From a virus, in IMG/VR virus record IMGVR_UViG_3300042539_001764, positions 4,094 to 68,093 of that record: 64,000 nt of DNA. One strand, 5' to 3'. The position numbers and the translations under genes were made by a program. Shown here piece by piece: positions 27,045-43,281 of this stretch (position 1 is its first letter; the number at the start of each line of letters is the position of its first letter). The notes beneath the pieces were generated by a model. That model saw only the letters and a list, made by a program, of their open reading frames with translations, made no database searches and was not told the DNA's origin.

Positions 27045-27788
27045 ATGCCGCGTCCTGAAATTGAATTTACCACGCCTGAAGAAGAAGAGGCTTACGCAAG
27101 GAAGGCTTTAATTAAAGCAGGTGTTCCTGAAAGCCAATATGAAGCAGTAAGGAACTATGGCAATGGTAATGGCGTGGTTTATGCCAAGGAAATGCTTGGC
27201 GTGAGGCGATGGATGGTGCAAGAATTATTGGCTGCTTCAATGAGCAATCGCCAGATTGCGAATGTTCTAAAGCTAAGCAAAGAAACAGTTAATGCCGATC
27301 GCCATTTCAACAGAGCTTTATATACGCAAGAAATCCTGAAGAATCAAGATACGCACAGGGCGCGTCTCTTGAAAGAACAAATGGATCTTAAAGACTTGGC
27401 GCTTGATAGCTTTGAGAAAAGTAAGCGCAAGAAAGTTATCACCATTATGGACGGTGGTGACGATGGCGGGAAAGAAATGGTGAAGCTAGAAGAAAGTGCT
27501 GGTGATCCATCGTTCTTGAACGTGGCGAAAAACTCGCTGGTAGAGCAAGCAAAGCTGCTCGGTCTCAACGAGATCAAGCAAGTCGAAAGCCAAGACACCT
27601 CCTATCGGAAGTTCCTCAAAGACCTTTCCACCACCATTGAAAAAGAAAAAGAATCTAAAGCTACTGACGAACGGCGCAGCAACTCGCTATTGGCATCTGC
27701 TGAAACCATTAGCTTTGACCCGGAGCCTGAAAACGAGCCCCTTCCTGAAACCATGCCTTTAGAAACAATTAATCATGATGACTATTGA
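27045..27788 (+). CDS. HTH protein, candidate terminase small subunit
   Basis: HTH (MSNRQIANVLKLSKETV), helical core and GDP.FL...QAKLLGL motif common in TerS-like proteins. Confidence 0.55.
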   Translation: MPRPEIEFTTPEEEEAYARKALIKAGVPESQYEAVRNYGNGNGVVYAKEMLGVRRWMVQELLAASMSNRQIANVLKLSKETVNADRHFNRALYTQEILKNQDTHRARLLKEQMDLKDLALDSFEKSKRKKVITIMDGGDDGGKEMVKLEESAGDPSFLNVAKNSLVEQAKLLGLNEIKQVESQDTSYRKFLKDLSTTIEKEKESKATDERRSNSLLASAETISFDPEPENEPLPETMPLETINHDDY

Positions 27789-29813: not shown

Positions 29814-30032
29814 TTGACAATGGAAAACAAAGAAATCATTCATCTTGCATACGAATATGCAGATTCATTTACAAGTGGCTTTATATTTAGCGAGGATAAT
29901 TTAATTGATTTTGCGAAGGCAATTTTAAATTATTCTGCAGCAATAAAGCCCCAGCCTTTTTATAAAGACGAATTCACTGAAAGCTACATTAAAGAGCTAG
30001 CAAGTTCTACACACTACGAGGTTCAACAATGA
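29814..30032 (+). CDS. Hypothetical protein
   Basis: 72 aa; IDFAKAIL motif. Confidence 0.5.
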   Translation: MTMENKEIIHLAYEYADSFTSGFIFSEDNLIDFAKAILNYSAAIKPQPFYKDEFTESYIKELASSTHYEVQQ

Positions 30033-30148
30033 CTCAAGAACACCCAATTACTCCGCCGCCTGAGCTACTCCGTCAGTGGCGCACGGACGCACAAGAGGTT
30101 TTGCCGAGTGATTCTTACTTTTACATCGCCACCCAAGCCGCCCGATGA
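30029..30148 (+). CDS. Short, possibly truncated protein MTQEHPITPPPELL... (39 aa)
   Basis: Manual translation; ATGA overlaps on both sides. Confidence 0.45.
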   Translation: MTQEHPITPPPELLRQWRTDAQEVLPSDSYFYIATQAAR

Positions 30149-30663
30149 CTGATTACACAGCAACGACCGATCAATGGGCCGACACGGAGCATTGGGCTCG
30201 GCACAACGGCAACGCTCAAGCTTGCATCCTTGAACTCCGCGCCAGAATCGAGGTGCTAGAAAATGCGGCTCAGAAGCACATCGTCGAAACCACTTCAAAC
30301 ATTCTTGCCTTATTTGGACGGGTTGAATCGTTAGAAGCTGCTGAACGCCAAACATCAACGGTCCACCAGATCAGCAAACCTCTGAAACTTACTGCAAAGC
30401 AGCAGGCAGAGTTAAAAGCATTGCTGACGCCCGATTTTAGGGTTGGCATGACGCCAACTTCTACTTCAAGCCAAGTTGGTAGTTCGCTAGTGGATGAGGT
30501 AGCCCGTGCCATTGGTCGAGACGATGAACCCATCAACTGGGAGGAAGAAGCCCGCGCTGCGATCCGCACGGTTGCCTTGTGGCTTAACGAAGCTCCGTTG
30601 CATCTTTACCCCGGTGATCGCGGCACCATTGTCAATACTCTTTATGACCAAGCGAATCAATGA
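30145..30663 (+). CDS. Hypothetical, apparently modular protein
   Basis: 172 aa; CILELRARIEVLE coiled segment plus EARAAIR.VA.WL segment. Confidence 0.6.
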   Translation: MTDYTATTDQWADTEHWARHNGNAQACILELRARIEVLENAAQKHIVETTSNILALFGRVESLEAAERQTSTVHQISKPLKLTAKQQAELKALLTPDFRVGMTPTSTSSQVGSSLVDEVARAIGRDDEPINWEEEARAAIRTVALWLNEAPLHLYPGDRGTIVNTLYDQANQ

Positions 30664-30842
30664 ATGACTTCAAATTTGTGCCACTGAACAGCCTTGAGAA
30701 TCGCCTCGGTGATGCCCTCGGCCTTGCCATTGCCATGATCCGCGACCCAAGCACCGTGGACAACAAAACCATGGCTCAGATAGAAGCACCATTCAAGGAA
30801 TGGTGCGATGGTCTCGTTGATGGAGGTCTATTCAATGACTGA
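30660..30842 (+). CDS. Hypothetical protein
   Basis: 60 aa; ATGA overlap. Confidence 0.55.
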   Translation: MNDFKFVPLNSLENRLGDALGLAIAMIRDPSTVDNKTMAQIEAPFKEWCDGLVDGGLFND

Positions 30843-30892
30843 CATCTTTCCGCCGTGCTCTTGAGTCCCTGCCCGATTAGTCAACATCACTA

Positions 30893-31069
30893 ATGACTGA
30901 CCAACAAATTATCCAGGCGGCACGCGAAGCCGGTCTTTGCTTTCCAACTTGTTGGAGCTTGATAGCCCCTTGGGATCCCACCAGAGACGTCAGCGACGAG
31001 TGGGGTGGCTACGAGCAAGGACAGATGGATAAGCTGCGCCACTTTGCTGAACTGATCAAAGCCTCCTAG
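30893..31069 (+). CDS. Cassette gene (58 aa)
   Basis: ATG directly after the ACTA arm; its stop TAG is the left arm of the next site. Confidence 0.6.
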   Translation: MTDQQIIQAAREAGLCFPTCWSLIAPWDPTRDVSDEWGGYEQGQMDKLRHFAELIKAS

Positions 31070-31086
31070 TCCACCTCGCTAAGACC

Positions 31087-31296
31087 ATGACTGAACTATC
31101 TCCCGCCGCGCAGGCGGTGTTGAAAGCAGCCTGCATCCACCACGGTTTATTCAACGAAGAAATCGTGCAGCGTCGTCGTATGGTTGCCGCCGTCCTGCGG
31201 GCTGCTGCGGATCAGGTGGTCATCAAACTGGCAGGGCTTGGACAAGAAAGCGCCTGGTATCTGGAAGAGATCGCCACCGAGCTTGAAGCCCAGTAG
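31087..31296 (+). CDS. Cassette gene (69 aa)
   Basis: MTELSPAAQAVL...AAVLRAAADQV...IATELEAQ; stop TAG lies within a site. Confidence 0.65.
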   Translation: MTELSPAAQAVLKAACIHHGLFNEEIVQRRRMVAAVLRAAADQVVIKLAGLGQESAWYLEEIATELEAQ

Positions 31297-31317
31297 TCCG
31301 ATCAACTAACCACCACC

Positions 31318-31503
31318 ATGACCTTACCAACCAACAGCATTATCTTTCGCGCAGGTCGTGTCCCCGATGAAGTCATCCGCATCGACGCCGAAGGCTTCCA
31401 CTACCGAGGCCAGTTCATTGAAGATGCAGGAGAAGCCCACCGCCTGCTGGTGGAGTTTCTACGCAAGCACCAGCCAGATACTGACTGGAAACACGCCAAG
31501 TAG
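31318..31503 (+). CDS. Cassette gene (61 aa)
   Basis: EGFHYRGQFIEDAGEAHRL; stop TAG lies within a site. Confidence 0.65.
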   Translation: MTLPTNSIIFRAGRVPDEVIRIDAEGFHYRGQFIEDAGEAHRLLVEFLRKHQPDTDWKHAK

Positions 31504-31573
31504 TCAGACCCACCTCTAGCTTTTTGCTAATTATCAGGATTTCCAATAAACGCCATTTATCAGGATTCTTGAT

Positions 31574-31600
31574 AAGGCCCCTTAAGGGGCCTTATTATTT
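31574..31600 (+). terminator. Hairpin terminator closing the cassette array
   Basis: AAGGCCCC-TTAA-GGGGCCTT-ATTATTT. Confidence 0.6.
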
Positions 31601-31789
31601 GTCCAAACCGTATCACCTGGCAATGGTTCAAGACCTACGTTCCAAGTATCAAAATCATCTTCGTTGCGAGGATCGTAAACTTCCCCGCTCGCCATCCATC
31701 GCTTAAGCCTTTCCCTTTCCTGCTCCGCAGAAAGCTTCATGATCGGCTAGCTCTGTATTGCCCGAGTCTAGCTAGCCCCGTATAAGCAA

Positions 31790-31996
31790 AAGAAAAGGGG
31801 CCTTGCGGCCCCCTCTCTTTACACCCTCCGATACCTCGCTTTCCCTTCAGTTACATAGGGAGATGACGCGCCTCGCGGGAGACCATGCCTAGCTCCCTGG
31901 CTAAGCCATACGGCTTTGCCCGCATCATCAGAAGTGTCCACCCTCACGGCTCGCCCGAAGACGAGAGCAGCAATTAAGCCGCTAGGACCGAGTGCT
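31790..31996 (-). ncRNA. Candidate stand-alone structured ncRNA (~200 nt)
   Basis: Own extended -10 (TGtTATGAT, 32010-32002), multiple stems including a UUCG loop, own terminator, no ORF in the track. Confidence 0.65.
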
Positions 31997-32107
31997 CAGA
32001 AATCATAACACGCCAGGTCCGTTCGGCAGCTCCCTGGAAATTCATGGCACAATGGGCATTGCGCTTCCAGAGATGGTTGCGCCCTCGCTAGCTCTCTCTC
32101 CTTCTTA

Positions 32108-32458
32108 ATGAAACGACTTTTTCTTTCCTTCCTGCTGCTCTGCCCCTTATCAGTGCAGGCAGCAACGCTCCAATGTGGCCGTGCATCTCACTACGGCATT
32201 GGCGATGGCTATCACGGGCAACGTGCTGCTAATGGTTCCCGCTTTGATGCCTATGCCCTCACTGCTGCCCACCCCTGGCTTCCATTTGGCACGAAAGTGC
32301 TTGTAAAGAACCGTAACAATGGAAAGGCCGTGGCGGTGACAATCACTGATAGAGGCCCTTACGCTCATGGGCGCATCCTCGATCTGTCTTACGGCAGCTT
32401 CTCTCGCATTGCTTCCCCTTCCCAAGGCGAAGCTTCCATCTGCATTTCCAAACTATGA
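32108..32458 (+). CDS. RlpA-like lytic transglycosylase (DPBB domain) with signal peptide
   Basis: G.AS.YG...ANG..FD...LTAAH..LPFGT...V.V.ITDRGP....RILDLS. Confidence 0.88.
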   Translation: MKRLFLSFLLLCPLSVQAATLQCGRASHYGIGDGYHGQRAANGSRFDAYALTAAHPWLPFGTKVLVKNRNNGKAVAVTITDRGPYAHGRILDLSYGSFSRIASPSQGEASICISKL

Positions 32459-32643
32459 AAGACGCTGCTTCGTTCCTGCTGGTGAGCATGGTCTTCGGAC
32501 TTGGTGCTTTCGCCATTGCTGCAGCCCCTCATGTGCAGCCAAACAAGGCAGGCCTTGACAAGTGCATGCAGCTTCACCCCGAACGCTACTGTCGCATTGC
32601 TAACGGCTTCCCCGTACCAAGGTTTGACACCCAGGCTAAATAG
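32455..32643 (+). CDS. Small membrane/secreted protein
   Basis: TM segment followed by C..LHPERYC. Confidence 0.5.
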   Translation: MKDAASFLLVSMVFGLGAFAIAAAPHVQPNKAGLDKCMQLHPERYCRIANGFPVPRFDTQAK

Positions 32644-32723
32644 CTCTATTATCCCCTCGGAATGTTCGCAAGGCCCTTCGGGGCCTGCTTCTTTCTTCGA
32701 TCCTCCGCTGGCGACAGCTCCTC

Positions 32724-33137
32724 ATGACTACCACCACCAAATCATCAGGGCATTTTCGCATCACGCAGAAAGCCCAAGAGCATCTCGGTCTGCAAGTGCT
32801 AAACGTGCTTCAGCACGTTGTAGTGATTCGCACTAACAAAGGCCCTCGTTTCGTCTCTCGCAAATACTATTTCGATGCATGGGAGATCGCCCAGCGTCGT
32901 TCACGCGCTCGTGGTTGCATCGCCCAGAAAAATGGCGAGCATTCCTGGCTGGTGTTTGATCCGCACACTGATAGCGATCACCACATTGTCATTCAGCATG
33001 GCATGAACACTGGCAAAGCTGGATATTATTCTTGCACTTGTGCTGATGCCTATTTTCAGCATGAGCGTGGCATTGAAGCTGATGCCATTCAATGCAAGCA
33101 CATCATTGCGGCTCAAATGTGGATGGAAAGGGCATGA
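32724..33137 (+). CDS. SWIM zinc-finger protein
   Basis: CTCAD...CKHI. Confidence 0.7.
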   Translation: MTTTTKSSGHFRITQKAQEHLGLQVLNVLQHVVVIRTNKGPRFVSRKYYFDAWEIAQRRSRARGCIAQKNGEHSWLVFDPHTDSDHHIVIQHGMNTGKAGYYSCTCADAYFQHERGIEADAIQCKHIIAAQMWMERA

Positions 33138-33349
33138 TGCGCTGGTTTCGTCGTCCCAATAGAAAGTCTGTCATTTCCAACAAAACTCGCGTGCTGTTGT
33201 CTCAGCATTTACGCCCAGAAGGAAGGCCGGTAGCAGAAGCCTTAATGGAAGAAGATGGCGTAATGCTTGAGCGTCTCTTTAATTACATTGGTGATCTGGA
33301 AGGTCGCATTAAAAGTCTGTCAATTTACATTCACTCTCGCAATCTTTGA
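33092..33349 (+). CDS. Hypothetical protein
   Basis: Likely start near 33134 (MMRWF...). Confidence 0.45.
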   Translation: MQAHHCGSNVDGKGMMRWFRRPNRKSVISNKTRVLLSQHLRPEGRPVAEALMEEDGVMLERLFNYIGDLEGRIKSLSIYIHSRNL

Positions 33350-33352
33350 ACC

Positions 33353-33559
33353 ATGCCTCTCACAACCACGCAACAGGCTATTGCCAGAATGGTTTCTGAC
33401 AATGCGAAGCACAAATGGAAAACTTACGATGCAAATGATCGCGCTTCTGCTCGCAGCTTCATTCTTTCTCGCATTGATAAACCCTCTTATAAAAGCAAGA
33501 AAGACTTACTCCTGACGCTTGCTGATGCCTTGCAAGATGAAATTTGGAAAGTGCTCTAG
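33353..33559 (+). CDS. Hypothetical protein
   Basis: 68 aa. Confidence 0.55.
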   Translation: MPLTTTQQAIARMVSDNAKHKWKTYDANDRASARSFILSRIDKPSYKSKKDLLLTLADALQDEIWKVL

Positions 33560-33750
33560 TGGCGCTTAAAGACAATAGGCGACAATTATTTGCGCTCGTT
33601 GAAAAGCATGGCTTTGCCTTGCATCGTCAAGGAAAGCATTATATTTTCAAGCATTTTTCAGGCAAAATGCTAGTGTGTAGCAAAAGCACAACAGACTGGC
33701 GAAGCTTAAAGAATGTAGAGCGTGATATTAAGCGAATCTTGTCTTTGTAA
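33559..33750 (+). CDS. HicA-like protein
   Basis: GF.L.RQGKH.IFKH..G...V.SKS..D.R..KN....IKR. Confidence 0.65.
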   Translation: MALKDNRRQLFALVEKHGFALHRQGKHYIFKHFSGKMLVCSKSTTDWRSLKNVERDIKRILSL

Positions 33751-33836
33751 CGTTTTATAACAAGGGGCCAACAAGGCCCCTTTCTCGTGTATTGTTGCAA
33801 GGTCTTCGGCAGCGATGCCGCCCTCCATTAAGCACC

Positions 33837-34010
33837 ATGGAATTTCTTCCGATTAAGCGTTCTTCACGAACTGGTAAAAGCGGCAGGTTTATTCGTTGCC
33901 CTCATTGCGGCCACATTGAGCTCGTGCATCATTTTGCATGGTCTGCACTTTCTTGCTCTAATTGCAACGCAATGGTTTCTAAGTTTGATTACACAATGGA
34001 GAGCAAGTGA
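33837..34010 (+). CDS. Zinc-ribbon protein
   Basis: CPHC...HFAWSAL.CSNC; start reassigned downstream of the promoter. Confidence 0.65.
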   Translation: MEFLPIKRSSRTGKSGRFIRCPHCGHIELVHHFAWSALSCSNCNAMVSKFDYTMESK

Positions 34011-34273
34011 TTATGACAACAATTCCTACCATCCATCTCAATGGCACTGGCGCCACCACGCTGCGTGATGAATACGCTGCTGCTTACGATGCCATCGGCA
34101 AGGCAGTAGATGCGTTAGTAGCAGCTACGTGCAACGCTCGCGATTTTTATCCGCAGGGCACTGATGCCTACTACAAAGCTCGTGATGAGCGTGCAGAAGC
34201 TTTCGACAAGCTTCGCCAGGCGCAACGCTATGTGGGCGAAATGCTCATGGGCATTTGCGACCAAATGCCCTGA
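34007..34273 (+). CDS. Hypothetical protein
   Basis: PTIHLNGTG...NARDFYPQG..AY..AR. Confidence 0.65.
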   Translation: MIMTTIPTIHLNGTGATTLRDEYAAAYDAIGKAVDALVAATCNARDFYPQGTDAYYKARDERAEAFDKLRQAQRYVGEMLMGICDQMP

Positions 34274-34389
34274 AGCCAGAGCTGAGCTAGGCTTCACGAG
34301 GCCTAGCTCTCACAGCGTGCTCTATCGCTGGTAACGCCCCATGAAGAAATCATTGGGAGCCCATATCCTACAGTATTTCTTAAGAAATT

Positions 34390-34590
34390 ATGCCCTTTCC
34401 CATTGGTACTCTCGTCGATCTCTACGATTTTGGCTTCAAACAATGGAGAGGAGAATACATAGTGGTGAAGCTGGGCGATAACGGCTTGCATAAGATCAAA
34501 AATACCAAGACCAATAGCCAGCAATTCGTTAAAGAAAAAGCTTTGCGCATGGGCAGGCTCGCTCCTTTTCGCATTGAGAGCCTTTATTAA
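34390..34590 (+). CDS. Hypothetical SH3-like small protein
   Basis: 66 aa, beta-rich. Confidence 0.5.
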   Translation: MPFPIGTLVDLYDFGFKQWRGEYIVVKLGDNGLHKIKNTKTNSQQFVKEKALRMGRLAPFRIESLY

Positions 34591-34677
34591 GCTGTGTAAC
34601 AGGCCTCGATAGAGGCCCTGCCATGCTGTATTGTTCTTCCCACAGGCGGAGACGCCTCCTCTAACCAACCATCCACC

Positions 34678-35064
34678 ATGACTGCCATCGCTCCCCCTCT
34701 CCAGGGCACCATCCTTCAGCCCGGCACCATACTCTCCAACTCCTGGGGTTATTCCATGACCATCGTTGATTTTTATGTGGTAGTGCGTTGCACGGAGAAA
34801 ACTGCCTGGGTGCAGCAAATCCAAAGCCATGAAGTGGACAAAGGGCCTGCTGGTGGCTATGCAGTGCCCGAACTCACTCGCAAGCCATTGATGGTCTTCC
34901 AGAATCGTGCCGATGGTGAAGGTGGTGAGCTAGTGGTGGCTCCGATTAAGAGCTTTCGCATCAGGAAAGACACCGATGGCACTGAATGGCTGTGGAACAG
35001 CAAACTTCAGCGCTCCATGCGCATCTGGAGCGGCAAGCAGATCTACAGCAACCACTGGGACTGA
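34678..35064 (+). CDS. Hypothetical early protein
   Basis: G.IL..SWGY.MT.VDFY.VV motif; downstream of a promoter. Confidence 0.7.
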   Translation: MTAIAPPLQGTILQPGTILSNSWGYSMTIVDFYVVVRCTEKTAWVQQIQSHEVDKGPAGGYAVPELTRKPLMVFQNRADGEGGELVVAPIKSFRIRKDTDGTEWLWNSKLQRSMRIWSGKQIYSNHWD

Positions 35065-35171
35065 TCTTTGTAACGAAATATTTCAATGCAGGAGCGGGGC
35101 CGAAAGGCCCTGCTTTGTCGTGCTGTATAGTTCTCTCATGAGCGGCGACGCTCTTCCTTCGCTTTCCTTCC

Positions 35172-35552
35172 ATGGCAATCATTAACCACTCTGTCGAGCA
35201 GCTCACCGGCCCCGGTTACTGGACCAAATTTGAAGGGCTTGAGCGCGTGAAGCTCACTATTACTGTGCCCTCCTGGCACGAGCCCTTCCCTTCTCAACAA
35301 AGAGCAGGAGCTGAAGATCCTCGCTCTCTTGAGCTACACGGCCTCCTCCACGTTTGCCAAACTTGGTACATCAATGGTCCCGTGATGGATCAATGGACCA
35401 TCAGCACTATGTGGGGGCCAATCAAGGTGCCTGCTGGCACTCGCATTGTTTCGGAGCCCCTGCCTGAGAAGTGGGCAGCATGGGAGCAGGAGGCCAGTGA
35501 AGGCACCAAGCAATGGTGGGCCTATTCCAACGGACGCACGGCCTTCTGTTAA
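35172..35552 (+). CDS. Hypothetical early protein
   Basis: 126 aa; downstream of a promoter. Confidence 0.65.
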   Translation: MAIINHSVEQLTGPGYWTKFEGLERVKLTITVPSWHEPFPSQQRAGAEDPRSLELHGLLHVCQTWYINGPVMDQWTISTMWGPIKVPAGTRIVSEPLPEKWAAWEQEASEGTKQWWAYSNGRTAFC

Positions 35553-35635
35553 GCATTGTTACAACGGGGCCGATTACGGCCCCCTTCAGACTATTGTTTT
35601 TCCATGAGGCGCGAGCCTCTCTCGCTTTTAAAACC

Positions 35636-35845
35636 ATGATCCTCAACGAAACCCAAGCAAAAGCACTGCAGCTCGTCGCTAACGCTGAGCTACGCACGCC
35701 AGAACAAATGCTTTCTCTTCTCCTCGCAGAAGGCATTCGATTTTATTTTTGTGACTACGAAAGCCCGTTCGGTCACGTAGATCTTGATGCAGACGCAGTT
35801 GAAAGACTTCTTCGTGCAGACGCCATGCGTTGCGTACAGGGCTAA
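35636..35845 (+). CDS. Hypothetical early protein
   Basis: Start reassigned downstream of the promoter. Confidence 0.55.
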   Translation: MILNETQAKALQLVANAELRTPEQMLSLLLAEGIRFYFCDYESPFGHVDLDADAVERLLRADAMRCVQG

Positions 35846-35865
35846 TTCAATTCTTCCTTAAAACA

Positions 35866-36045
35866 ATGCACACTTACTCCGTTACCATTGAACACCGCTA
35901 CGGTGGCATTTACAAAAACTGGCAAACTATCAACTTGGATGCCACTAGCGAAGAAGAAGCAAAAAAGCTTGCAGAATATCGCTTCCCTGAATGTTGGGAC
36001 GTAGAAGCAATCCGCGCCATCCGCCACGAATGGGCTGCACTATGA
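35866..36045 (+). CDS. Hypothetical protein
   Basis: A.SEEEAKKLA motif. Confidence 0.55.
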   Translation: MHTYSVTIEHRYGGIYKNWQTINLDATSEEEAKKLAEYRFPECWDVEAIRAIRHEWAAL

Positions 36046-36278
36046 CAGCTCTACAGTCTGGGCTCACTATCAATCAACGCAATCTTCTGCTCTACTATTT
36101 AAACCACAAGAAAAAGCATGGCGATAAACCATGCCATGTGCCAAGATTTCCTTCGCAAGTTAGTCGGTTTTCTGACTACTTGAGAGCGATGGAAAGGCTA
36201 GAGGAGCGCAAATTGCTTTGCATAGAACGGAATTCTGAAGATTATCTTTCCTGGACCATCGTTGACGCCGAATCATGA
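36042..36278 (+). CDS. Hypothetical, winged-helix-like protein
   Basis: LT.NQRNLL.Y...AMERLEERKLL. Confidence 0.5.
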   Translation: MTALQSGLTINQRNLLLYYLNHKKKHGDKPCHVPRFPSQVSRFSDYLRAMERLEERKLLCIERNSEDYLSWTIVDAES

Positions 36279-36577
36279 TCACCACCATCAAGACTTACCA
36301 AGACAACGGCCCATATTTCTCCTGCACCAAGGGCAGCTACCAGGCCGCTTCGCTGCAGCAGCTCATCTTCCACGTGAGACAGGCGATGGAAGACCGTGAG
36401 CACATCATTGGCATCTATGGGCCCGATGGCTCCTGCAGGGGCGTCTGGCAGCTTGATATCGAAGGGCACGTAGACAGTGCTGGCGATACCATCGTTGACC
36501 ATGAAGCCTATGAGCTGCTAAGGCCCTCGACTAAAAGCAGATGGACGTGGGACTTCCTACAAAGGCAACTGGCTTAA
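36275..36577 (+). CDS. Hypothetical protein
   Basis: 100 aa; ATGA overlap. Confidence 0.55.
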   Translation: MITTIKTYQDNGPYFSCTKGSYQAASLQQLIFHVRQAMEDREHIIGIYGPDGSCRGVWQLDIEGHVDSAGDTIVDHEAYELLRPSTKSRWTWDFLQRQLA

Positions 36578-36713
36578 TTGCAGGAGCATCTTGGATGCTC
36601 CCTTCCTGAACCTTGTTCAGGCATTGTTTCGCTTTGTTAACAAGGGGCCTCCAGGCCCCTTTCTGCTGTATTGTTGGTTCACGAGGCGCGAGCCTCTCCT
36701 CTGCTTTCTCACC

Positions 36714-36968
36714 ATGGAATTCCTTGTTAATACTGGCGGTCTGCTCATCAAGCACGATGAAGAGCAGCTTATTTCCCTCATCGCTCAGTTCATCAACGAA
36801 GGCAAGCCTGGCTCTGGCTTTTTCGTGCAAGGCGTAGCCTGCATTGCTAAGCACGAAGATGGCCAGATGATGATGGGCCGCAAAATAGAAACGCTCAGCC
36901 GCCTTTTCAATAAAACCAGCGACGATATCATGCACACGGTTAAGTGCTGGGCATCAGAGGCTGTTTAA
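36714..36968 (+). CDS. Hypothetical early protein
   Basis: Start reassigned downstream of the promoter. Confidence 0.55.
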   Translation: MEFLVNTGGLLIKHDEEQLISLIAQFINEGKPGSGFFVQGVACIAKHEDGQMMMGRKIETLSRLFNKTSDDIMHTVKCWASEAV

Positions 36969-37015
36969 TTAAGCAAAGGGGCGCCCCAAAGCGCCCCGTT
37001 CTCTTCTTTAAAACC

Positions 37016-37174
37016 ATGATTCTCATTGATTTCTTTGATGAAGCCTCCTGCAAAGGCACTGAACTCATTGAAGGCTGGTATTTCTACGATGATGCAGATG
37101 ATTCCGTAGTAGGCGGGCCGTTTTCCAATGAAGAAGCTGCCATAAAGGCGGCGTTTGATGGACACGGCTGGTGA
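37016..37174 (+). CDS. Hypothetical protein
   Basis: GWYF...GGPF..EEAA..AA. Confidence 0.6.
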   Translation: MILIDFFDEASCKGTELIEGWYFYDDADDSVVGGPFSNEEAAIKAAFDGHGW

Positions 37175-37179
37175 TGTAT

Positions 37180-37250
37180 AGTGGATCCGGCTGGAAGCGT
37201 ATAGGGTCTGGCTAGCTCCGTATCTAGGGTCCGGCTAGGGGCGTATCCTG
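37180..37250 (+). repeat. Three tandem GGCT(A/G)G-N3-CGTAT units
   Basis: Seen directly; similar units at 31745-31785. Confidence 0.65.
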
Positions 37251-37256
37251 GGAGGT

Positions 37257-37491
37257 GGTACATGTGTACTTCTTGAAAATGAGAACCATTCTCAATAGTA
37301 CATTTGTACTATATAAGCAAAACTTATCATTCCGGGCCGAACGATAAGCTGGGCTTATCATATAAGCTCCCCTTATGGGACCCTCGCCCTCCCATAAGCT
37401 GGGCTTATCAGTGGTGCGGATAGTACGTCTGCACTTGTGCCAATCCGCAGGTGGCACACAGCCTCTCGTGATATTGAAAATCATTCTCAAT
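37257..37491. promoter_or_regulatory. Dense cluster of palindromic operator-like boxes (LexA-, Fur- and LysR-like)
   Basis: Ten boxes in 235 bp; listed in the findings. Confidence 0.7.
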
Positions 37492-37514
37492 AACGCGGCA
37501 TTGCGTCTTGCCCG

Positions 37515-37590
37515 TATCACGCTTGCGTTGTTTGCACTATCACGCTTGCGTTGTTTATCGTTCTGCGCTTGCGTTGTTTGCATTATCACA
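37515..37590 (+). repeat. Three direct repeats of CGCTTGCGTTGTTT
   Basis: Seen directly. Confidence 0.75.
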
Positions 37591-37882
37591 ATGCCGTTAT
37601 GCGATGGCCTGATTGCCTGATTGTTACGGATTGTTTCAACCGTTGACTTTTGGCGCGTCATGCTGTATTTCGCGCAGGTGTGCGCGTTTCGTTCTTTATT
37701 TGCTCGCATCTGGCTGTTTGTCGGTGCCCGTACCATCGCAGTCCCCATGGCGTCAAGGCAACGCCGCGTTATGGTGGCCGCTTTGCTAGGTGGCCACATT
37801 GGCGGGCCGTTGCGCGGTTTGGCGGTGGTATGCTTTGCACATCGGACGGAGAGATCCACCGATGCTCCCGCAATCCCCCATC

Positions 37883-38026
37883 ATGCGACTCTCACCTATC
37901 CCTGTTCTGCTGACTGCACTCGTTGTTGGCATTATCTGGGCAGATCGCGACGCTTCGGCTCGTTTCAACCGCTGCACTGAAACGCAATCCCTCGCGCACT
38001 GCCGTCTCGTATTCTACGGGCGCTGA
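37883..38026 (+). CDS. Small membrane protein
   Basis: MRLSPIPVLLTALVVGIIW...C...C..GR. Confidence 0.5.
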   Translation: MRLSPIPVLLTALVVGIIWADRDASARFNRCTETQSLAHCRLVFYGR

Positions 38027-38065
38027 TTCTCTCAAATATTCTGCAAACATTCTCACAAACAAACA

Positions 38066-38224
38066 ATGCAAAAGTACTTTCTAACCATTTCAGAACGCGC
38101 TGAAATTATTGATGAGGCCGTCGCCAATGATTGCGAGAATTCCGATTTTGAGCCCGTAACTTATCGCAAATTCTTGGAATCATTGAGCAACTCTGAACTA
38201 GTCAAACTCTGCTGCAATCCGTAG
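38066..38224 (+). CDS. Hypothetical acidic protein (52 aa)
   Basis: Manual translation ...YRKFLESLSNSELV. Confidence 0.5.
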   Translation: MQKYFLTISERAEIIDEAVANDCENSDFEPVTYRKFLESLSNSELVKLCCNP

Positions 38225-38265
38225 CCTTTTCAAACATTCCCGCAAACATTCCCTCTCCTAAAATC

Positions 38266-39177
38266 ATGCCTACCGTTCTGAATTCTCGCGCTAAGCTTCC
38301 CTCTGATTTGGCTTCAATGTCGCAACAATATAAGATCAGCTACCGTGATCTGCTGAGCGTTAATCCTAAGACTGAGAAAAGCAAGGTGCAAACATACATT
38401 CTGCACCTTGCGCCCGACAATACCAGCGGCGTTAATGTTTGCCCCGGTGCTGGCAATTGTCGCAAAATCTGTTTGCATTTTGCAGGCAATCCAGTTTATA
38501 TGACAAACAAACAGGCAGCCAGAATTCGCCGGACGCTAGCATTCGCCGCCGATAAACAGCGATTCGCCCGCCTCATTGTTTGCGCGATTCTCTCCAAGCT
38601 AAACAAACATTCAGGCGAACCTATTGCAATCCGTCTTAACGGTACGTCGGATATTGCGTGGGAGAATGTAGATTTTAACGTGACGCCAGAATTTGCTACA
38701 TTCTGCCGCACAAAATTTGGCTACTTTCTGCCAACGGGCACCCGCAATATTTTTGAAATTTTCAACAATATTCGCGCAAATTATGGGGCTGTGGTTATTT
38801 TCTATGACTACACAAAAATTAAGCGCAACTGGGAGGAATGTGCGCGGATTGGTTACCATCTCACCTTCAGTTTCGACGGATGGAAAAATCTCCAGAATCT
38901 TAAAATCTGCCGGGATGCTCTACGCGCTGGCGTTAATGTGGCGGCCGCGTTCAACCTTAAAAAGGGGCAAGAATTGCCCCATTATGTAGACTGTTCGCGT
39001 TTTGATTTCCTCCCTAGCGATAAAGTGACTGGGCGCGTGTTTGCCGTTCTGGATGGCGACCTGACAGATTTTCGCCCGTCAGATATAGGCGGCGGCCACA
39101 TCGTAGGCTTAAGGTTCAAGCTACCCCACGGCATTAACTACACTGACGCTGATAAAAAGGCGTTCTGCATCGCATGA
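38266..39177 (+). CDS. Gp88-family protein (Cys cluster, radical-SAM-like)
   Basis: LHLAP...CP....C...CL..AG; ARIRRT; IRLNGTSD; FYDYTK; YHLTFS; DGD..D.R; IVGL.FK. Confidence 0.75.
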   Translation: MPTVLNSRAKLPSDLASMSQQYKISYRDLLSVNPKTEKSKVQTYILHLAPDNTSGVNVCPGAGNCRKICLHFAGNPVYMTNKQAARIRRTLAFAADKQRFARLIVCAILSKLNKHSGEPIAIRLNGTSDIAWENVDFNVTPEFATFCRTKFGYFLPTGTRNIFEIFNNIRANYGAVVIFYDYTKIKRNWEECARIGYHLTFSFDGWKNLQNLKICRDALRAGVNVAAAFNLKKGQELPHYVDCSRFDFLPSDKVTGRVFAVLDGDLTDFRPSDIGGGHIVGLRFKLPHGINYTDADKKAFCIA

Positions 39178-39229
39178 TAAAGAGGGCGGCAATTGTCGCC
39201 CCGTTGTTTAAACATTCCCTTCTAAAATA

Positions 39230-39433
39230 ATGCAAACTTTCTACATTCCCTACACTGACGAATACGGCTTTAACTGTGAAATGGCCGTACATAGTGTAGA
39301 AGATGCTGAAGATCTTTTAGAAAGTTTCAACAATGCCCTAGAAAATGCTTCAATCAGTCGATCCTACATCCTACGTAGCATGATAGAAAGCCTGGAAGAT
39401 CAGCTCGCAAACTATAAAGAACTGCCAGACTAG
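39230..39433 (+). CDS. Hypothetical acidic protein
   Basis: 67 aa; shares the AAACATTCCCT leader seen upstream of 38266. Confidence 0.55.
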   Translation: MQTFYIPYTDEYGFNCEMAVHSVEDAEDLLESFNNALENASISRSYILRSMIESLEDQLANYKELPD

Positions 39434-39618
39434 CCTAGAAGCCCGCACAAGCCCGCACAAGCAAAGCCCGCTAGCACTCCCCCTAGCGGGCTTTTAACGT
39501 GCCATAAAAGCTCGCAGGATGGCCGCATGATGGGAGCCGATAGAGTCGGCAGAATCTAGAAAGTGCGGGAATCTAGGGAGCATCAGCATTGTTACAGTTT
39601 GAGACAATGCCGAAAATC

Positions 39619-39652
39619 ATTACAAAGTGTTAAAATTGTATCCGTTGCTACA
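39619..39652. promoter_or_regulatory. Adjacent HLR1-like repeat and NtcA-like box
   Basis: ATTACAAA-gt-GTTAAAAT (39619-39636), then TGTA-N8-TACA (39637-39652). Confidence 0.55.
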
Positions 39653-39779
39653 GAAACTGGGGGCAGGCTATGGTAGGGAGCAATAACACGGCAAAAACAA
39701 AACAGGGGGCTGCGGTATCTCCTCCGAAATGTGCGATCAAAAATCACCTACTTTTTTCGCCCTAGTATTTATACCTAGT

Positions 39780-40160
39780 CTAAAATTCCAAGCTATTAAC
39801 AATGGCTTCACCTACGGCTTTTGTTACTAGTTTTAGTTCTTCGTGAGAAGCATCATTTTTAATTCGATTAGCTTTATGACTAATAATCCATACATTTCCT
39901 TTGACGTAGCCTTTAGAAGGATCAATACGATCTAGGGAGGGGCTATTAGAAAGACTGACAGAACCAAGTCCGCGTCGAAGGGACCATTCTAGGGGGATAT
40001 TGAAGACTGGGCAATGAGAAGGGACAATAGAGCGAATATAGGCGAGATCAATATCGAAGGGAAGATTTTTATTTTTTGCTCTTTCTTTTGCTTTAGCCAC
40101 CATATCCTTTGTTTGACGCATCACTGGATTTTGACGATCGTACTGGTGGTCGTAATTCAT
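39780..40160 (-). CDS. HNH-like endonuclease
   Basis: AK.RA......F.I...P..CPV...SPSLDRIDP.KGYVKGNVWIIS.KAN..K. Confidence 0.8.
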   Translation of the reverse strand: MNYDHQYDRQNPVMRQTKDMVAKAKERAKNKNLPFDIDLAYIRSIVPSHCPVFNIPLEWSLRRGLGSVSLSNSPSLDRIDPSKGYVKGNVWIISHKANRIKNDASHEELKLVTKAVGEAIVNSLEF

Positions 40161-40785
40161 GATGTTGCAAGGGCTTGAGAAATATTAACGAGCAAAAGCT
40201 AGTCGTACTATGCCGAAGGCAAGTCGAAGACGCCGCCTGAGGCATCCTCAGGAGATCTCAGGCGATTAACTAAACCAATGGAGACGCCCCAAAGGCGTCG
40301 GAATGATGCGCTTATAAAAGCAAGAACAAGACAATTCGCACATTCTCCTTCCCATTGCTCTTAATGCCAGAAAGCGGCCCTTAAAGGGGCCGCTGCTCAG
40401 AAGATAAAAATAGAAACAAATGATTTTTAGCCTTTCCCGCAGCAAGCACACTTTCAGCGACTCATCGTGAGTGTGAGTCAACTCTTGATCTTCTGGCGCG
40501 GGCCTTTTATTTTTCGCCGCTTGTCTAGAACGCTCCGCCCTTTGGGGGCTTCGCTGGTCTAGCTCATCGCGGCTAGTTTAGCCTTTGTCAGTAGACGCTC
40601 CGTTCCTTTGGGGAACTCCGCTCGCTTGAGGCGCTGACTTGAGGAGCGTCGTCTAGCCAGGAAGCTGCTTTTGGCTGAAATCAGACAGCAGCTTCGCTTA
40701 CGTCTATCGTATCTAACGCTGTCGGGAGTGATTTTGTCCCTGTTGTCCCTATTCAGGTATAGTAAGGGCTTTCAGGCGAGCAGCC

Positions 40786-41481
40786 GTGGTTCAGCCCAAG
40801 CAAAAGAAGCGCAAAACAGAAGGCTGGGTGTATTTCGTGCAGTGGGCGAGCATGCCCTACCACGTCAAAATTGGCTTCTCCACATCGCCAGGAGAGCGTT
40901 TCGCATCGTTTCTCACGTCGTCACCGGACACGCTGATCGTCGTCAAGGCTTTTGAGGCCAATCGAGACGATGAGCAGGATTTGCATGAGCGTTTTGAGAA
41001 TTTTCGCCATGCAGGAGAATGGTTCCATCTTTCCATGGCAATCAAGAAATATCTTGAAAGCGAAGCGCCTTGCCAAACATTGGAGGCGAAAATTAAATTT
41101 GGCAACAGAAATGAAAGTCGCGTTCAATGGACCCCTATGCGGCCAGGATTAGCTCAGTCTCTTGAAAAGCTGCACCAAGAAAAACGCCTGCCTCGTTATG
41201 TGAAAAATGCTCGTACGTTTGTGCTATGGGCTATTGGCGACATTGAGGCTTGCGATTATTTCCCCACGTCAAATGCCATTATTCACCACGAAGCAAATCG
41301 TGATGTTTATCAGGCGAAAACCATTTACAACCAACTCATTGCGTTGGAAGAAGAGGGAATGATTGCGAAAAAGCCCGGCAAAACTTTTGCGTTGCTTCCG
41401 AAAGGTGAAAGTGAGCTTATCAAGACAGAAAAAGAAAACATGCAAAAACGCAAGAGCGCAAGAAGCTTAAGACTTGATTAA
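40786..41481 (+). CDS. GIY-YIG (T5orf172-like) nuclease with C-terminal winged helix
   Basis: VYFVQ...VKIGFS..P..R...E..LH..F...R..GEWF. Confidence 0.75.
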   Translation: MVQPKQKKRKTEGWVYFVQWASMPYHVKIGFSTSPGERFASFLTSSPDTLIVVKAFEANRDDEQDLHERFENFRHAGEWFHLSMAIKKYLESEAPCQTLEAKIKFGNRNESRVQWTPMRPGLAQSLEKLHQEKRLPRYVKNARTFVLWAIGDIEACDYFPTSNAIIHHEANRDVYQAKTIYNQLIALEEEGMIAKKPGKTFALLPKGESELIKTEKENMQKRKSARSLRLD

Positions 41482-41557
41482 AGGCGAAGATTGTATTAAA
41501 TGCTGCTTGTCATTTTGAAGAAAAGAACTAGCGTTAAATAATCTTCGCCAAAGTACC

Positions 41558-41749
41558 ATGTGGGGCCTTCCTGATCGCCAGCCATTCAACATTGGTCCAT
41601 ATAAATTGTGGCCTTGTTTCAGTAAGCCAGAGTTCCAATGGTTTGCTGCCATTGATGGCAGGCCTCATTACTTCCGCACAACGAACGATGCGAAGCTTTT
41701 CGTGAAAGATTTGCTAGCAATGGAGGATGAGGAGGGGCTGTGTGATTAA
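41558..41749 (+). CDS. Hypothetical protein
   Basis: 63 aa, aromatic-rich. Confidence 0.55.
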   Translation: MWGLPDRQPFNIGPYKLWPCFSKPEFQWFAAIDGRPHYFRTTNDAKLFVKDLLAMEDEEGLCD

Positions 41750-41835
41750 GGAAATCTTCCGCTTCTCCATTGTTCTCTTGCGCTAGCCTTCCTTCTGTTG
41801 ATTCTCGGCCCGCCTGAGCGGGCCTTTGTCGTCTC

Positions 41836-43281
41836 ATGAAGCTAAAGGAAAAGGCAAAATGTGAACCAATTGCCCGTACTGGGCGAGTGCAAGATTGGCT
41901 TGATAGTCCCGAAGGACGTTTGCCCGTAAGTTGCACTGTTTTTAACGTGGACGATTCAATGGAGGGCGAAGATGGCATTGAAGCGTCTTGGCGATTTGTC
42001 AGCCACGGTTTGCGCAATGGTGCGGGCGTCGCTGTTCATTTGTCTTCTTTGCGTCCGAGGGGCATGGAAAATGGCAAAGGCCTCGTGGCAAGCGGACCAG
42101 TAAGTTTTGGTAAGATTTATTCCACGCTTAATGAAATCCTTCGTCGCGGCGGTTTATACAAAAACGGAGCTGTAGTTCTTCATCTTGACTATACAAGTCC
42201 TGATGCGATGGAGTTTGTCAATGCATCGCGAAGCGAACTGCCTTGGGTGAAGCGTTGCTTAAATGTTGATGAAAATTTTCTTTCCGCATCGTCTCCTGAG
42301 CTAATTAATGCCTGTCTTCGTGCCATCTCTTCTGGCGATCTCTGGCTCAACAAAATTCGCTACAACAATCGTGGAGAACGCATCCGATCGAATGTCTGTT
42401 TGGAAGTTTATCTTCCGCATCGTGGCACTTGTCTTCTTCAGCACGTTAATTTGGGCGCATGCACGTTGGACAATGTGCAAGGAGCTTTTATTGAAGGCAT
42501 GAAGCAGCTTTGTGAGCTGCATCCCAATACTGGCGTTGGCGACACTGGGGAATATCTTTCTCCTTCCATTGATAAGCAAATTGGTTTGGGCGTGTTGGGC
42601 CTAGCTAATTTCCTTGCCATTCAAGGGATTAGCTACGAAGATTTTGGCAATGCACTAGAGGCTTATCAGGCAGAAGATCCTCGCGGTTGGAACGACTTCT
42701 GGAAAAACACGATTTCTGGCGAAGCCGTCTGGCAAATTGACCAGGGCATCCAGAAGGCTGCAGAAATTGCTCGTGAGCATGGCATGGAACGTGCTTTCTG
42801 CATTGCTCCCACTGCATCATGCTCCTATCGCTATCTAGACACCAGGGGCTTTACCACTGCTCCTGAAATTGCTCCTCCCATTGCTCGCACTGTAGATCGC
42901 GACAGCGGCACATTTGGCGTGGAGAGTTTTGACTATGGAGAAGTGGAGACTGCTGCAGAAGTGGGCTGGGACGCTTTTTATAAAGCTGCTAATGGTTTAG
43001 TACGGCTGTATCAACGCACTGGTCTTTTCCATGGTTATTCGTTTAATTCTTGGTCAGATGTGGTGAGTTACGACGAAGCCTTCCTGAAGGATTGGCTAGA
43101 CTCTCCTCAGACGAGCCTCTATTACAGCTTGCAAGTCCTGCCTGATACTCAGCGCAAGGACGATGCATATGCTGCGTTGGACGACGACTTTAAGAGCATG
43201 TTTGGTCTCAATGAAGAGACTGAGCAGGATTCTGCGTCTTGTTCGCTGGAGGCTGGATTCTGCGCCGCCTGTGCGGAGTGA
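41836..43281 (+). CDS. nrdA: Ribonucleotide reductase large subunit (minimal cyanophage type)
   Basis: PVSC, finger loop NVCLE, APTASCS, SLYY, C-terminal C..C; only 481 aa and no ATP cone. Confidence 0.92.
   Translation: MKLKEKAKCEPIARTGRVQDWLDSPEGRLPVSCTVFNVDDSMEGEDGIEASWRFVSHGLRNGAGVAVHLSSLRPRGMENGKGLVASGPVSFGKIYSTLNEILRRGGLYKNGAVVLHLDYTSPDAMEFVNASRSELPWVKRCLNVDENFLSASSPELINACLRAISSGDLWLNKIRYNNRGERIRSNVCLEVYLPHRGTCLLQHVNLGACTLDNVQGAFIEGMKQLCELHPNTGVGDTGEYLSPSIDKQIGLGVLGLANFLAIQGISYEDFGNALEAYQAEDPRGWNDFWKNTISGEAVWQIDQGIQKAAEIAREHGMERAFCIAPTASCSYRYLDTRGFTTAPEIAPPIARTVDRDSGTFGVESFDYGEVETAAEVGWDAFYKAANGLVRLYQRTGLFHGYSFNSWSDVVSYDEAFLKDWLDSPQTSLYYSLQVLPDTQRKDDAYAALDDDFKSMFGLNEETEQDSASCSLEAGFCAACAE

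Follow-up and report, generated by a model that had tools for sequence, protein, structure and literature searches.

The box cluster and its phage

The stretch of DNA analysed here, called the window throughout, comprises 64,000 nucleotides (positions 4094-68093) of the 68,093-bp virus record IMGVR_UViG_3300042539_001764, which is classed as linear and 95% complete. Our subject is a 235-bp part of it, at window positions 37257-37491, that is crowded with boxes resembling binding sites of the host transcription factors LexA, Zur and RbcR. The window carries genes for the terminase large subunit, portal, tail, primase/helicase, a Sak-type annealing protein, an exonuclease, ThyX, dCTP deaminase and a class Ia ribonucleotide reductase, as well as two tRNAs, and since the contig starts inside the tape-measure gene, its ends are assembly breaks. 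The phage is a siphovirus, and its closest isolate is Synechococcus phage S-CBS4: the two portals share 66% identity over 85% of the protein, and gene order is syntenic. Because of this kinship and shared gene order, and because the sequencing runs containing the stretch are recorded as lake-water or freshwater metagenomes, the host is most probably a freshwater picocyanobacterium. Of those open reading frames (ORFs) of the window that were scanned for families, none was recognisable as an integrase, a partition gene or a repressor.

The cluster forms the variable middle of a control region of about 690 bp. An initial annotation of this DNA had described a back-to-back array of LexA-, Fur- and LysR-like boxes, and all of its motif coordinates were confirmed on the sequence (Table 1). 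The boxes are real, non-random and conserved, and they occur far above chance. They cover 155 of the 235 bases, and the whole 68,093-bp record contains perfect GTAC-N4-GTAC (2/2), ATAAG-N5-CTTAT (4/4), ATTCTCAAT (2/2) and TGTGCCA-N9-TGGCACA (1/1) nowhere else. When short palindromes with arms of 5+5 bases and gaps of 0-9 are counted, the stretch holds 19, against a genome mean of 3.5 (sd 2.4, maximum 17) with none of 580 same-size windows reaching 19; shuffling the region 500 times gave a mean of 2.1, and no shuffle reached 19. The four RbcR-type boxes are spaced 31, 18 and 32 bp from centre to centre. A 671-nt contig of a run from another sample and study (X2) matches positions 37193-37863 with 0 differences, so the box cluster is not an assembly artefact, and a further run (X1), from which this DNA may have come, spans the whole stretch. 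Two ORFs called mechanically overlap the cluster, 37224-37859 on the minus strand and 37375-37620 on the plus strand; we judge neither to be a credible gene, as relatives differ by the copy number of a 23-bp repeat and by indels that are not multiples of three, and we take the stretch to be non-coding. Positions 37101-37900 contain no NtcA, Pho-box or HLR1 pattern.

Table 1. Features of the box cluster, followed by those of the surrounding control region, in window coordinates. Box names denote the predicted host regulator.
Feature	Position	Strand	Sequence or layout	Remark
LexA box 1	37257-37270		GGTACATGTGTACT	abuts -35-like hexamer; fits RGTACNNNDGTWCB
Zur box 1	37280-37294		TGAGAAC-C-ATTCTCA	37278 box of the initial annotation, AATGAGAAC-C-ATTCTCAAT (37278-37296)
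LexA box 2	37297-37310		AGTACATTTGTACT	perfect to AGTACWNWTGTACT and to RGTACNNNDGTWCB
Four RbcR-type boxes (LysR, T-N11-A)	37313-27, 37344-58, 37362-76, 37394-408		ATAAG-N5-CTTAT	
LexA-like box 3	37422-37435		AGTACGTCTGCACT	one mismatch to consensus; one from the commonest host recA core, GTACGTCTGTAC
23-bp palindrome	37436-37458		TGTGCCA-N9-TGGCACA	
Zur box 2	37475-37489		TGAAAAT-C-ATTCTCA	37473 box of the initial annotation, ATTGAAAAT-C-ATTCTCAAT (37473-37491)
Candidate core promoter(s), consensus reading	37273..37317	+	TTGAAA (37273-78)-15 nt-AATAGT (37294-99)	
Alternative candidate promoter		+	TTCTCA (37289-94)-17 nt-TATAAG (37312-17)	
GC-rich hairpin, then T-run	36978..36997	+	stem of 7-8 pairs, then TTCTCTTCT	terminator-like end of upstream gene block
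Small conserved ORF, 52 aa from ATG	37016..37174	+		coding sequence conserved in several relatives
Type A iterons, four direct repeats of 21-23 bp	37164..37246		GGnnCCGGCYRG-N4-YGTAT	
Type B iterons, four direct repeats of 23 bp	37497..37598		TATCACGCTTGCGTTGTTTGCAT	
Conserved promoter-like element	37643..37672	+	TTGACT-17 nt-TATTTC	TTGAC-N15-TGnTA in relatives; from alignment
Conserved structured 5' leader	37662..37864	+		about 190 nt in relatives
Hydrophobic 54-aa ORF	37862..38026	+	ATG 37862	first gene past the leader
GP88-family gene	38266..39177	+		PF17338; phrog_1617

Host counterparts of the boxes

Host sites were sought in 61 genomes sampled from the Cyanobiaceae, the family of the named freshwater strains that a cyanobacterial 16S primer matched (Vulcanococcus limneticus, Synechococcus CS-1330 and Synechococcus UW140), and related phages were represented by 35 viral loci fetched with the GP88-family gene (PF17338) as anchor. 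For cyanobacterial LexA the published consensus reads AGTACWNWTGTACT, and CGTACGTTTGTACT is one of the recA boxes (PMC3091678). Among 30 Cyanobiaceae genomes, 28 have a perfect GTACNNNTGTAC no more than 400 bp upstream of recA, against 0/30 for equal-size control windows within the gene, and in the named freshwater strains it precedes recA in two (G006 and G008) and a umuD-like gene in another (G007). The host recA cores GTACGCCTGTAC, GTACGTCTGTAC, GTACGTTTGTAC and GTACATGTGTAC are the same words that are found in the phages, and the last of these, the core of LexA box 1, is identical to one host recA box (L240). Across the window and its 35 relatives (328,223 bases), all 45 perfect GTAC-N4-GTAC sites lie 500-1300 bp upstream of the GP88 gene, and the A/T asymmetry of the LexA box is kept in 13/13 distinct central tetramers of the phage boxes, a count that leaves out six junction sites with N4 = TATA or TGTA. 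Because the same box stands upstream of recA in nearly all of these host genomes, we assign GTAC-N3-TGTAC to host LexA, by which it is predicted to be bound. The LexA match first proposed for this DNA is thereby borne out by the published consensus and by the host-genome test, with one mismatch in its third copy.

Both Zur-like boxes of the phage are 7-1-7 inverted repeats, each one mismatch from the ideal TGAGAAT-N-ATTCTCA, and each occurs as an identical 15-mer in a host genome (box 1 in G023, box 2 in G020). Sites matching TGAGAATNATTCTCA with at most one mismatch number 49 in the host genomes against 25 in the control, and 16 against 0 in genomes of at least 2.1 Mb; the perfect 6-3-6 form, TGAGAA-N3-TTCTCA, is not enriched (15 versus 10). 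Twelve of the host sites were fetched and 10 flanking genes scanned: five encode ZnuA, one an ABC ATPase next to znuA, and one each a CobW_C/COG0523 protein, a HupE/UreJ protein, a ferritin and an SLH protein. This set corresponds to the Zur regulon of cyanobacteria as it appears in two reports (PMC3323870, PMC9337993), the second of which describes the binding of SynZur to Zur boxes that overlap the -10 of znuA. As the motif in the larger host genomes marks mostly zinc genes, we assign the phage boxes to Zur rather than to the iron regulator Fur, again as predicted binding sites; the earlier description of Fur-type boxes therefore holds for the family and is refined to its zinc-sensing member. 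Compared with the Anabaena FurA consensus AAATAAATTCTCAATAAAT (PMC4005646), the phage box agrees at 14/19 positions, counted by hand. At one Prochlorococcus-like locus a pair of boxes separates a ferritin gene from a gene of the Crp family, and an iron-Fur reading of the Zur-like boxes may apply.

The third motif, ATAAG-N5-CTTAT, precedes the start codon of csoS1 by 123-128 nt in 29/29 host genomes (30 loci were fetched and the start was found in 29), perfect in 25 and with one mismatch in four. This host element stands about 43 nt upstream of an invariant CTTGAC (-35), and csoS1, a BMC-domain gene, is followed by the gene for the RuBisCO large subunit. Perfect ATAAGC-N3-GCTTAT occurs at 31 sites in 23/61 genomes, against 0 for the reversed control, and 14 of the 31 are just upstream of csoS1. 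The other 17 were inspected in part: 14 of the 31 sites were fetched, and eight of those fetched are non-csoS1 sites; seven of these eight are intergenic (three in prmA/petF hairpins, two at cbiX/DUF2811 and two beside unannotated or unassignable genes), and one non-csoS1 site (L166, in G026) has no csoS1 match nearby. The central five bases of ATAAG-N5-CTTAT vary freely in host and phage. In Synechocystis, the RbcR consensus is ATTA(G/A)-N5-(C/T)TAAT, with activation from about -90 and repression near the transcription start (PMC13249358); our motif has the same 5-N5-5 layout and agrees with that consensus at 8/10 specified positions. For Prochlorococcus MED4, a preprint names RbcR as the inferred regulator of a carboxysome/RuBisCO gene module (bioRxiv 10.64898/2026.04.15.718746). 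Since the element precedes the host carboxysome/RuBisCO operon, ATAAG-N5-CTTAT is most probably a site of the LysR-type activator RbcR/CbbR, and the LysR T-N11-A boxes of the initial annotation prove to have the pattern of this fixed host element.

At three of the host loci (L163, L165 and L175), the DNA separating prmA from the ferredoxin gene can fold into a long hairpin tipped by ATAAGC-NNN-GCTTAT; its lower stem covaries and the tip is fixed. We considered and rejected N4-like hairpin promoters as an account of ATAAGC-NNN-GCTTAT: the phage genome is without a giant virion RNA polymerase, and arm mismatches in relatives are uncompensated.

The 23-bp palindrome is present in relatives in a TGTGCCAAT..TGTCACA version. 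In the host genomes GTGCCA-N9-TGKCAC counts 20 against 4 in the control, with 7 of 10 inspected sites inside ORFs, and these counts and inspections matched TGTGCCA-N9-TGGCACA to no host motif.

The same slot in related phages

The relatives share an architecture consisting, in order, of type A direct repeats, a variable array of repeats or palindromes, a conserved element (GAATGTTGCGGAATGTTGCA..TTGAC-N15-TGnTA) and a conserved leader, and the box cluster falls in the variable-array part. With box definitions derived from the host, LexA-like boxes were found in the control region of 17/35 relatives (64 sites versus 13 elsewhere, a 42-fold density) and RbcR-like boxes in that of 19/35 (53 sites versus 11 elsewhere, 41-fold), so that both box types recur at the same position, contrary to the non-conservation that the initial annotation had named as a ground for refutation; Zur-like boxes are present there in 6/35 at 8-fold the density of the rest of the loci. 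The composite layout of a -35-like hexamer, Zur box, -10-like hexamer and LexA box is common to the window and one relative, L027, and, with TTGTGC-16-CATAGT, it recurs in most relatives of the GTAC class.

The slot is filled in other lineages by different arrays: TTTAGC-N7-GCTAAA in 7-9 copies (L006, L012 and L017-L019), ATCAACAATTAAT in 4-7 copies (L014, L020-L022, L028 and L036), and TAACAT-N9-ATGTTA together with TTGCRnnATTYGCAA in 6-8 copies (L031 and L033). TTGCRnnATTYGCAA counts 41 against 10 in the control in host-family genomes and may be the site of another host factor, whereas TTTAGC-N7-GCTAAA, at 11 against 4, finds no support as a host motif. S-CBS4, the record of which is cut inside a gene, has neither the boxes nor the GP88 module, and a DNA similarity search of positions 36900-38300 against a phage collection gave no match.

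Comparison of ORF clusters with motif classes identified no ORF within 6 kb that tracks the GTAC class, the only correlated ORFs being overlapping or physically linked ones. Homologues of LexA, Fur or LysR were found neither among 65 non-structural ORFs scanned together nor among about 30 scanned singly, and Pfam scanning of 65 small ORFs recovered no repressor, only a weak GerE helix-turn-helix and a HicA-like match. The former is the sole Pfam signal, of GerE type, in a 247-aa protein (27045-27788) that PHROGs labels 'RNase E'; no other early gene could be recognised as a DNA-binding candidate. The HicA-toxin-like small ORF lies at 33544-33750.

Flanking elements and the 5' leader

Two families of direct repeats border the cluster. 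A regular expression finds the type A iterons in 30/36 loci, and variants in the remaining loci were seen by eye; further pairs lie at window 31743-31785, beside a terminator-like hairpin, and in the S-CBS4 record at 64458-64505 (about 15458-15505 of L038). In host-family genomes the type A iteron, which served as a specificity control for the box searches, is not enriched (14 versus 10 in the control). These repeats are phage-specific and may be an origin or be bound by a conserved DNA-binding protein of the phage. The type B iterons vary among relatives from 3 to 5 copies, and the GATTGTTnC repeats that come after them, within 37497-37641, abut the TTGACT hexamer of the conserved promoter-like element, which is absent from the output of the promoter scan. 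Just upstream of the type A iterons, the 52-aa ORF has no Pfam or PHROG family. In four relatives (L011, L025, L029 and L031) its place directly upstream of the iterons is taken by an ORF that resembles an HNH-type homing endonuclease, as judged by eye from the translated sequence, and this replacement is consistent with the junction being a recombination hot spot.

The operon opened by the conserved promoter encodes the small membrane protein, for which no Pfam family was found, then the GP88-family protein and, further on, the ribonucleotide reductase. A PDB search returned no relative of the GP88-family protein. In Pelagibacter and Mesorhizobium podophages its homologues are encoded in the first 2.5 kb, and an early function is suggested for the protein.

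The leader ends in a hairpin (37840-37864) with a GAGA (GNRA) loop, the 3' arm of which contains the ATG of the 54-aa ORF. A G(C/A)GA loop is kept in 24/26 non-redundant leader sequences, and 5/5 closing pairs covary, with 0/500 shuffles reaching the observed score; the sequences were aligned on the loop and selected on three closing pairs, so that only the outer two pairs are unbiased. RNAalifold on a MAFFT alignment of the leader returned one invariant helix only, and an invariant CAACG...CGTTG pairing encloses further, variable helices. Rfam searched over 30000-42000 with E up to 1 gave no match in the control region, and two sub-threshold matches, PrrB/RsmZ (27.3 bits) and ctRNA_p42d (27.9 bits), at 31786-31926 on the minus strand. 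That segment sits in a 400-bp non-coding stretch upstream of an RlpA-like lipoprotein gene, which is conserved in S-CBS4 too. AAACATTCY repeats stand just upstream of phage start codons (38045, 38232, 38244 and 39210) and, inverted, upstream of the conserved TTGAC. They resemble GAACATTCCA, an invariant sequence with which the host csoS1 leader begins (host loci L177-L206), and the two may represent a shared leader element or some other shared binding site.

Discussion

Our findings describe a short non-coding stretch in which the recognition motifs of three host regulons are packed side by side, and we put at about one in two the probability that it is an operator cluster for host LexA (three boxes), Zur (two) and an RbcR-type regulator (four) that ties a phage transcription unit to the state of the host. 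In the proposed mechanism, host LexA, zinc-loaded Zur and RbcR would occupy the boxes after DNA entry. The first group of boxes, in the order LexA, TTGAAA, Zur, AATAGT, LexA and RbcR-type, overlaps weak -35/-10-like hexamers at 37273-37317, and rightward transcription would be held down there in an undamaged, zinc-replete cell; damage to the DNA or a lack of zinc would release it, and carbon status would modulate it. Boxes of all three regulators overlap the core promoter positions in either promoter reading of Table 1, and the arrangement thus resembles the action of LexA and Zur at host promoters (PMC9337993). Past this first group, the RbcR-type boxes (three more) give two pairs about 31 bp apart. 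Such pair spacing would fit LysR tetramers. We infer binding in vivo, the identity of RbcR as the protein at the csoS1 box, the promoter and the direction of the effect from sequence. As the phage genome multiplies, the boxes would come to outnumber the few host sites, and some titration of the regulators is likely as a by-product once phage DNA is abundant, since each phage genome brings nine boxes and a host chromosome has a handful.

Several observations weigh against an operator function. The promoter scan reported no sigma-70-type site within 37257-37491 at its thresholds, and the candidate promoters are weak, having either a 15-nt spacer or a -10 without the final T. The single well-conserved promoter is 150-390 bp downstream of the boxes, a distance too great for its simple repression, and no RbcR-type box stands at the host's activating distance from any -35. 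The initial annotation had remarked that the density of boxes exceeds the need of one promoter, and this is upheld by the three LexA and four RbcR-type boxes here and the up to six LexA-like boxes in L027; Zur box 2 and LexA box 3, moreover, have no promoter-like partner. In 18/35 relatives the slot holds unrelated arrays and no LexA-like boxes. Lastly, GTACNNNTGTAC is not enriched genome-wide in the host genomes (382 versus 365 in the control), so that the LexA assignment rests on position and not on counts, though such an absence of enrichment is expected for a small regulon.

The initial annotation had proposed both a host-state sensor and a regulator sponge, and the data are compatible with either. 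The operator-like geometry favours control of a phage promoter by host state, and the excess and tandem copies, with the 7-9-copy arrays of sister lineages, keep alive a different selected function, that of a decoy. The boxes would then control no phage promoter and would instead sequester LexA, Zur and RbcR away from the chromosome of the host as copies accumulate, with the outcome that SOS and recombination genes are induced, zinc uptake is derepressed and the carboxysome/RuBisCO operon loses its activator. We regard this as possible, if on balance improbable. It would account for multiplicity without promoters, there being four RbcR-type boxes in 96 bp and an unpartnered LexA box 3 and Zur box 2, and for the 7-9 tandem copies of other motifs in the slot of other lineages. 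Perfect boxes per phage genome also equal those of a whole host genome, which has 0-3 perfect ATAAGC-N3-GCTTAT and 0-4 Zur sites with at most one mismatch. Cyanophages redirect host carbon metabolism, and a shutdown of carbon fixation by decoys would match this. On the other hand, the boxes of the first group are placed around promoter-like hexamers as in a classic operator, and L027 shares this geometry with the window; a pure decoy has no need of it, and the boxes number only nine per genome. A broader version, in which a hypervariable protein-free slot is loaded lineage by lineage with site arrays for different host transcription factors, titrating scarce regulators so that SOS/recombination and zinc import are switched on and carbon fixation off, is in our view doubtful.

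It is unlikely that the boxes are instead sites of phage proteins, in an iteron-type origin, a packaging site or another cis-element, with their likeness to host motifs incidental or a case of mimicry. The two families of 21-23-bp direct repeats flanking the boxes speak for such an element, as do the conservation of the type A iterons as far as S-CBS4 and their not being a host motif. The genome has a primase/helicase and no recognised polymerase, and the phage would thus need an origin that recruits host machinery. Most of its small ORFs are without a known family, and the array is hypervariable between lineages with terminases 93-99% identical (G001, G002, G004 and G005), a behaviour often seen in specificity determinants. 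Against this, three independent box types each correspond to the motif that marks a defined host regulon, the LexA match extending to its asymmetry, and none of the ORFs within 6 kb varies along with the GTAC class. The iterons may be an origin, yet the boxes between them would stay unexplained; GC skew and the contig ends are uninformative on origin or terminus.

Inert relics, that is, host promoter DNA acquired by recombination in a hypervariable, repeat-rich region and now without function, are a very improbable source of the cluster. The region does behave as a recombination hot spot, in that the order and number of boxes differ in relatives, homing-endonuclease genes adjoin it and two runs (X3 and X9) show many variant short contigs. 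However, likeness to the host is confined to the boxes, with flanks unlike host DNA; the boxes are near-perfect while their central N positions vary freely; and boxes occur at the same position in 17-19/35 relatives. The initial annotation had also suggested a pad on which proteins load for DNA entry, analogous to the T5 injection-stop region. Such a pad, at an end of the genome, is the least probable reading and has the density of repeats and palindromes as its only favourable point. The contig breaks within the tape-measure gene, the S-CBS4 record is cut inside a gene, and in a 100%-complete relative the end-repeat of the assembly is found away from the cluster, about 4 kb downstream of the GP88 gene.

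The use of host PhoB and NtcA by cyanophages is already known (PMC10976474, PMC3037559), and in our literature search no cyanophage was reported to carry boxes for LexA, Zur or RbcR. If the boxes work, three further host circuits, those of DNA damage, zinc and the carboxysome/RuBisCO regulator, would be stacked in one exchangeable non-coding module. As operators, they would allow a lake cyanophage to adjust the timing of part of its programme to DNA damage, metal and carbon state in the host; as decoys, they would shut down host carbon fixation and raise zinc uptake without any phage protein, which bears on the viral effect on primary production. Box content would also predict the host group of an uncultured phage. 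Independently of the phage result, the fixed ATAAG-N5-CTTAT upstream of csoS1 is a candidate RbcR site for alpha-cyanobacteria, and SynZur, for its part, has already been purified.

The motifs themselves are those of the Cyanobiaceae recA, znuA and csoS1-cbbL operators, with some identical 12- to 15-mers. The host, however, places one or two boxes per promoter at fixed distances, whereas the phage has nine boxes of three kinds in 235 bp, none of them at the activating distance. Iteron-type origins (lambda ori, P4 ori/crr) and the T5 injection-stop region are likewise long non-coding stretches with arrays of 21-23-bp direct repeats and palindromes; here, in contrast, the repeats flank the cluster and the boxes themselves match host regulons.

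CTXphi and coliphage 186, through tum, are LexA-controlled phage switches, as is GIL01. The last of these, a phage of Bacillus thuringiensis, is described as having no classical repressor and relying on host LexA (PMC6182141). Host LexA boxes at a phage promoter, here a candidate one, and the release of transcription by DNA damage would be common to GIL01 and the window phage. The known examples are temperate with a lysogenic state, whereas the window has no recognised integrase, partition gene or repressor, and its LexA boxes are combined with Zur and RbcR-type boxes.

A parallel in kind is the use of PhoB (Pho boxes of P-SSM2 pstS and of S-PM2d) and NtcA (T4-like cyanophages), in which a lytic cyanophage likewise carries sites for stress regulators of its host and its genes follow host physiology. 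In those phages the sites are spread over gene promoters, whereas in the freshwater S-CBS4-like siphovirus studied here the predicted sites are for other regulators, LexA, Zur and an RbcR-type LysR protein, and are gathered in one non-coding hub, in several copies each, that is swapped between lineages.

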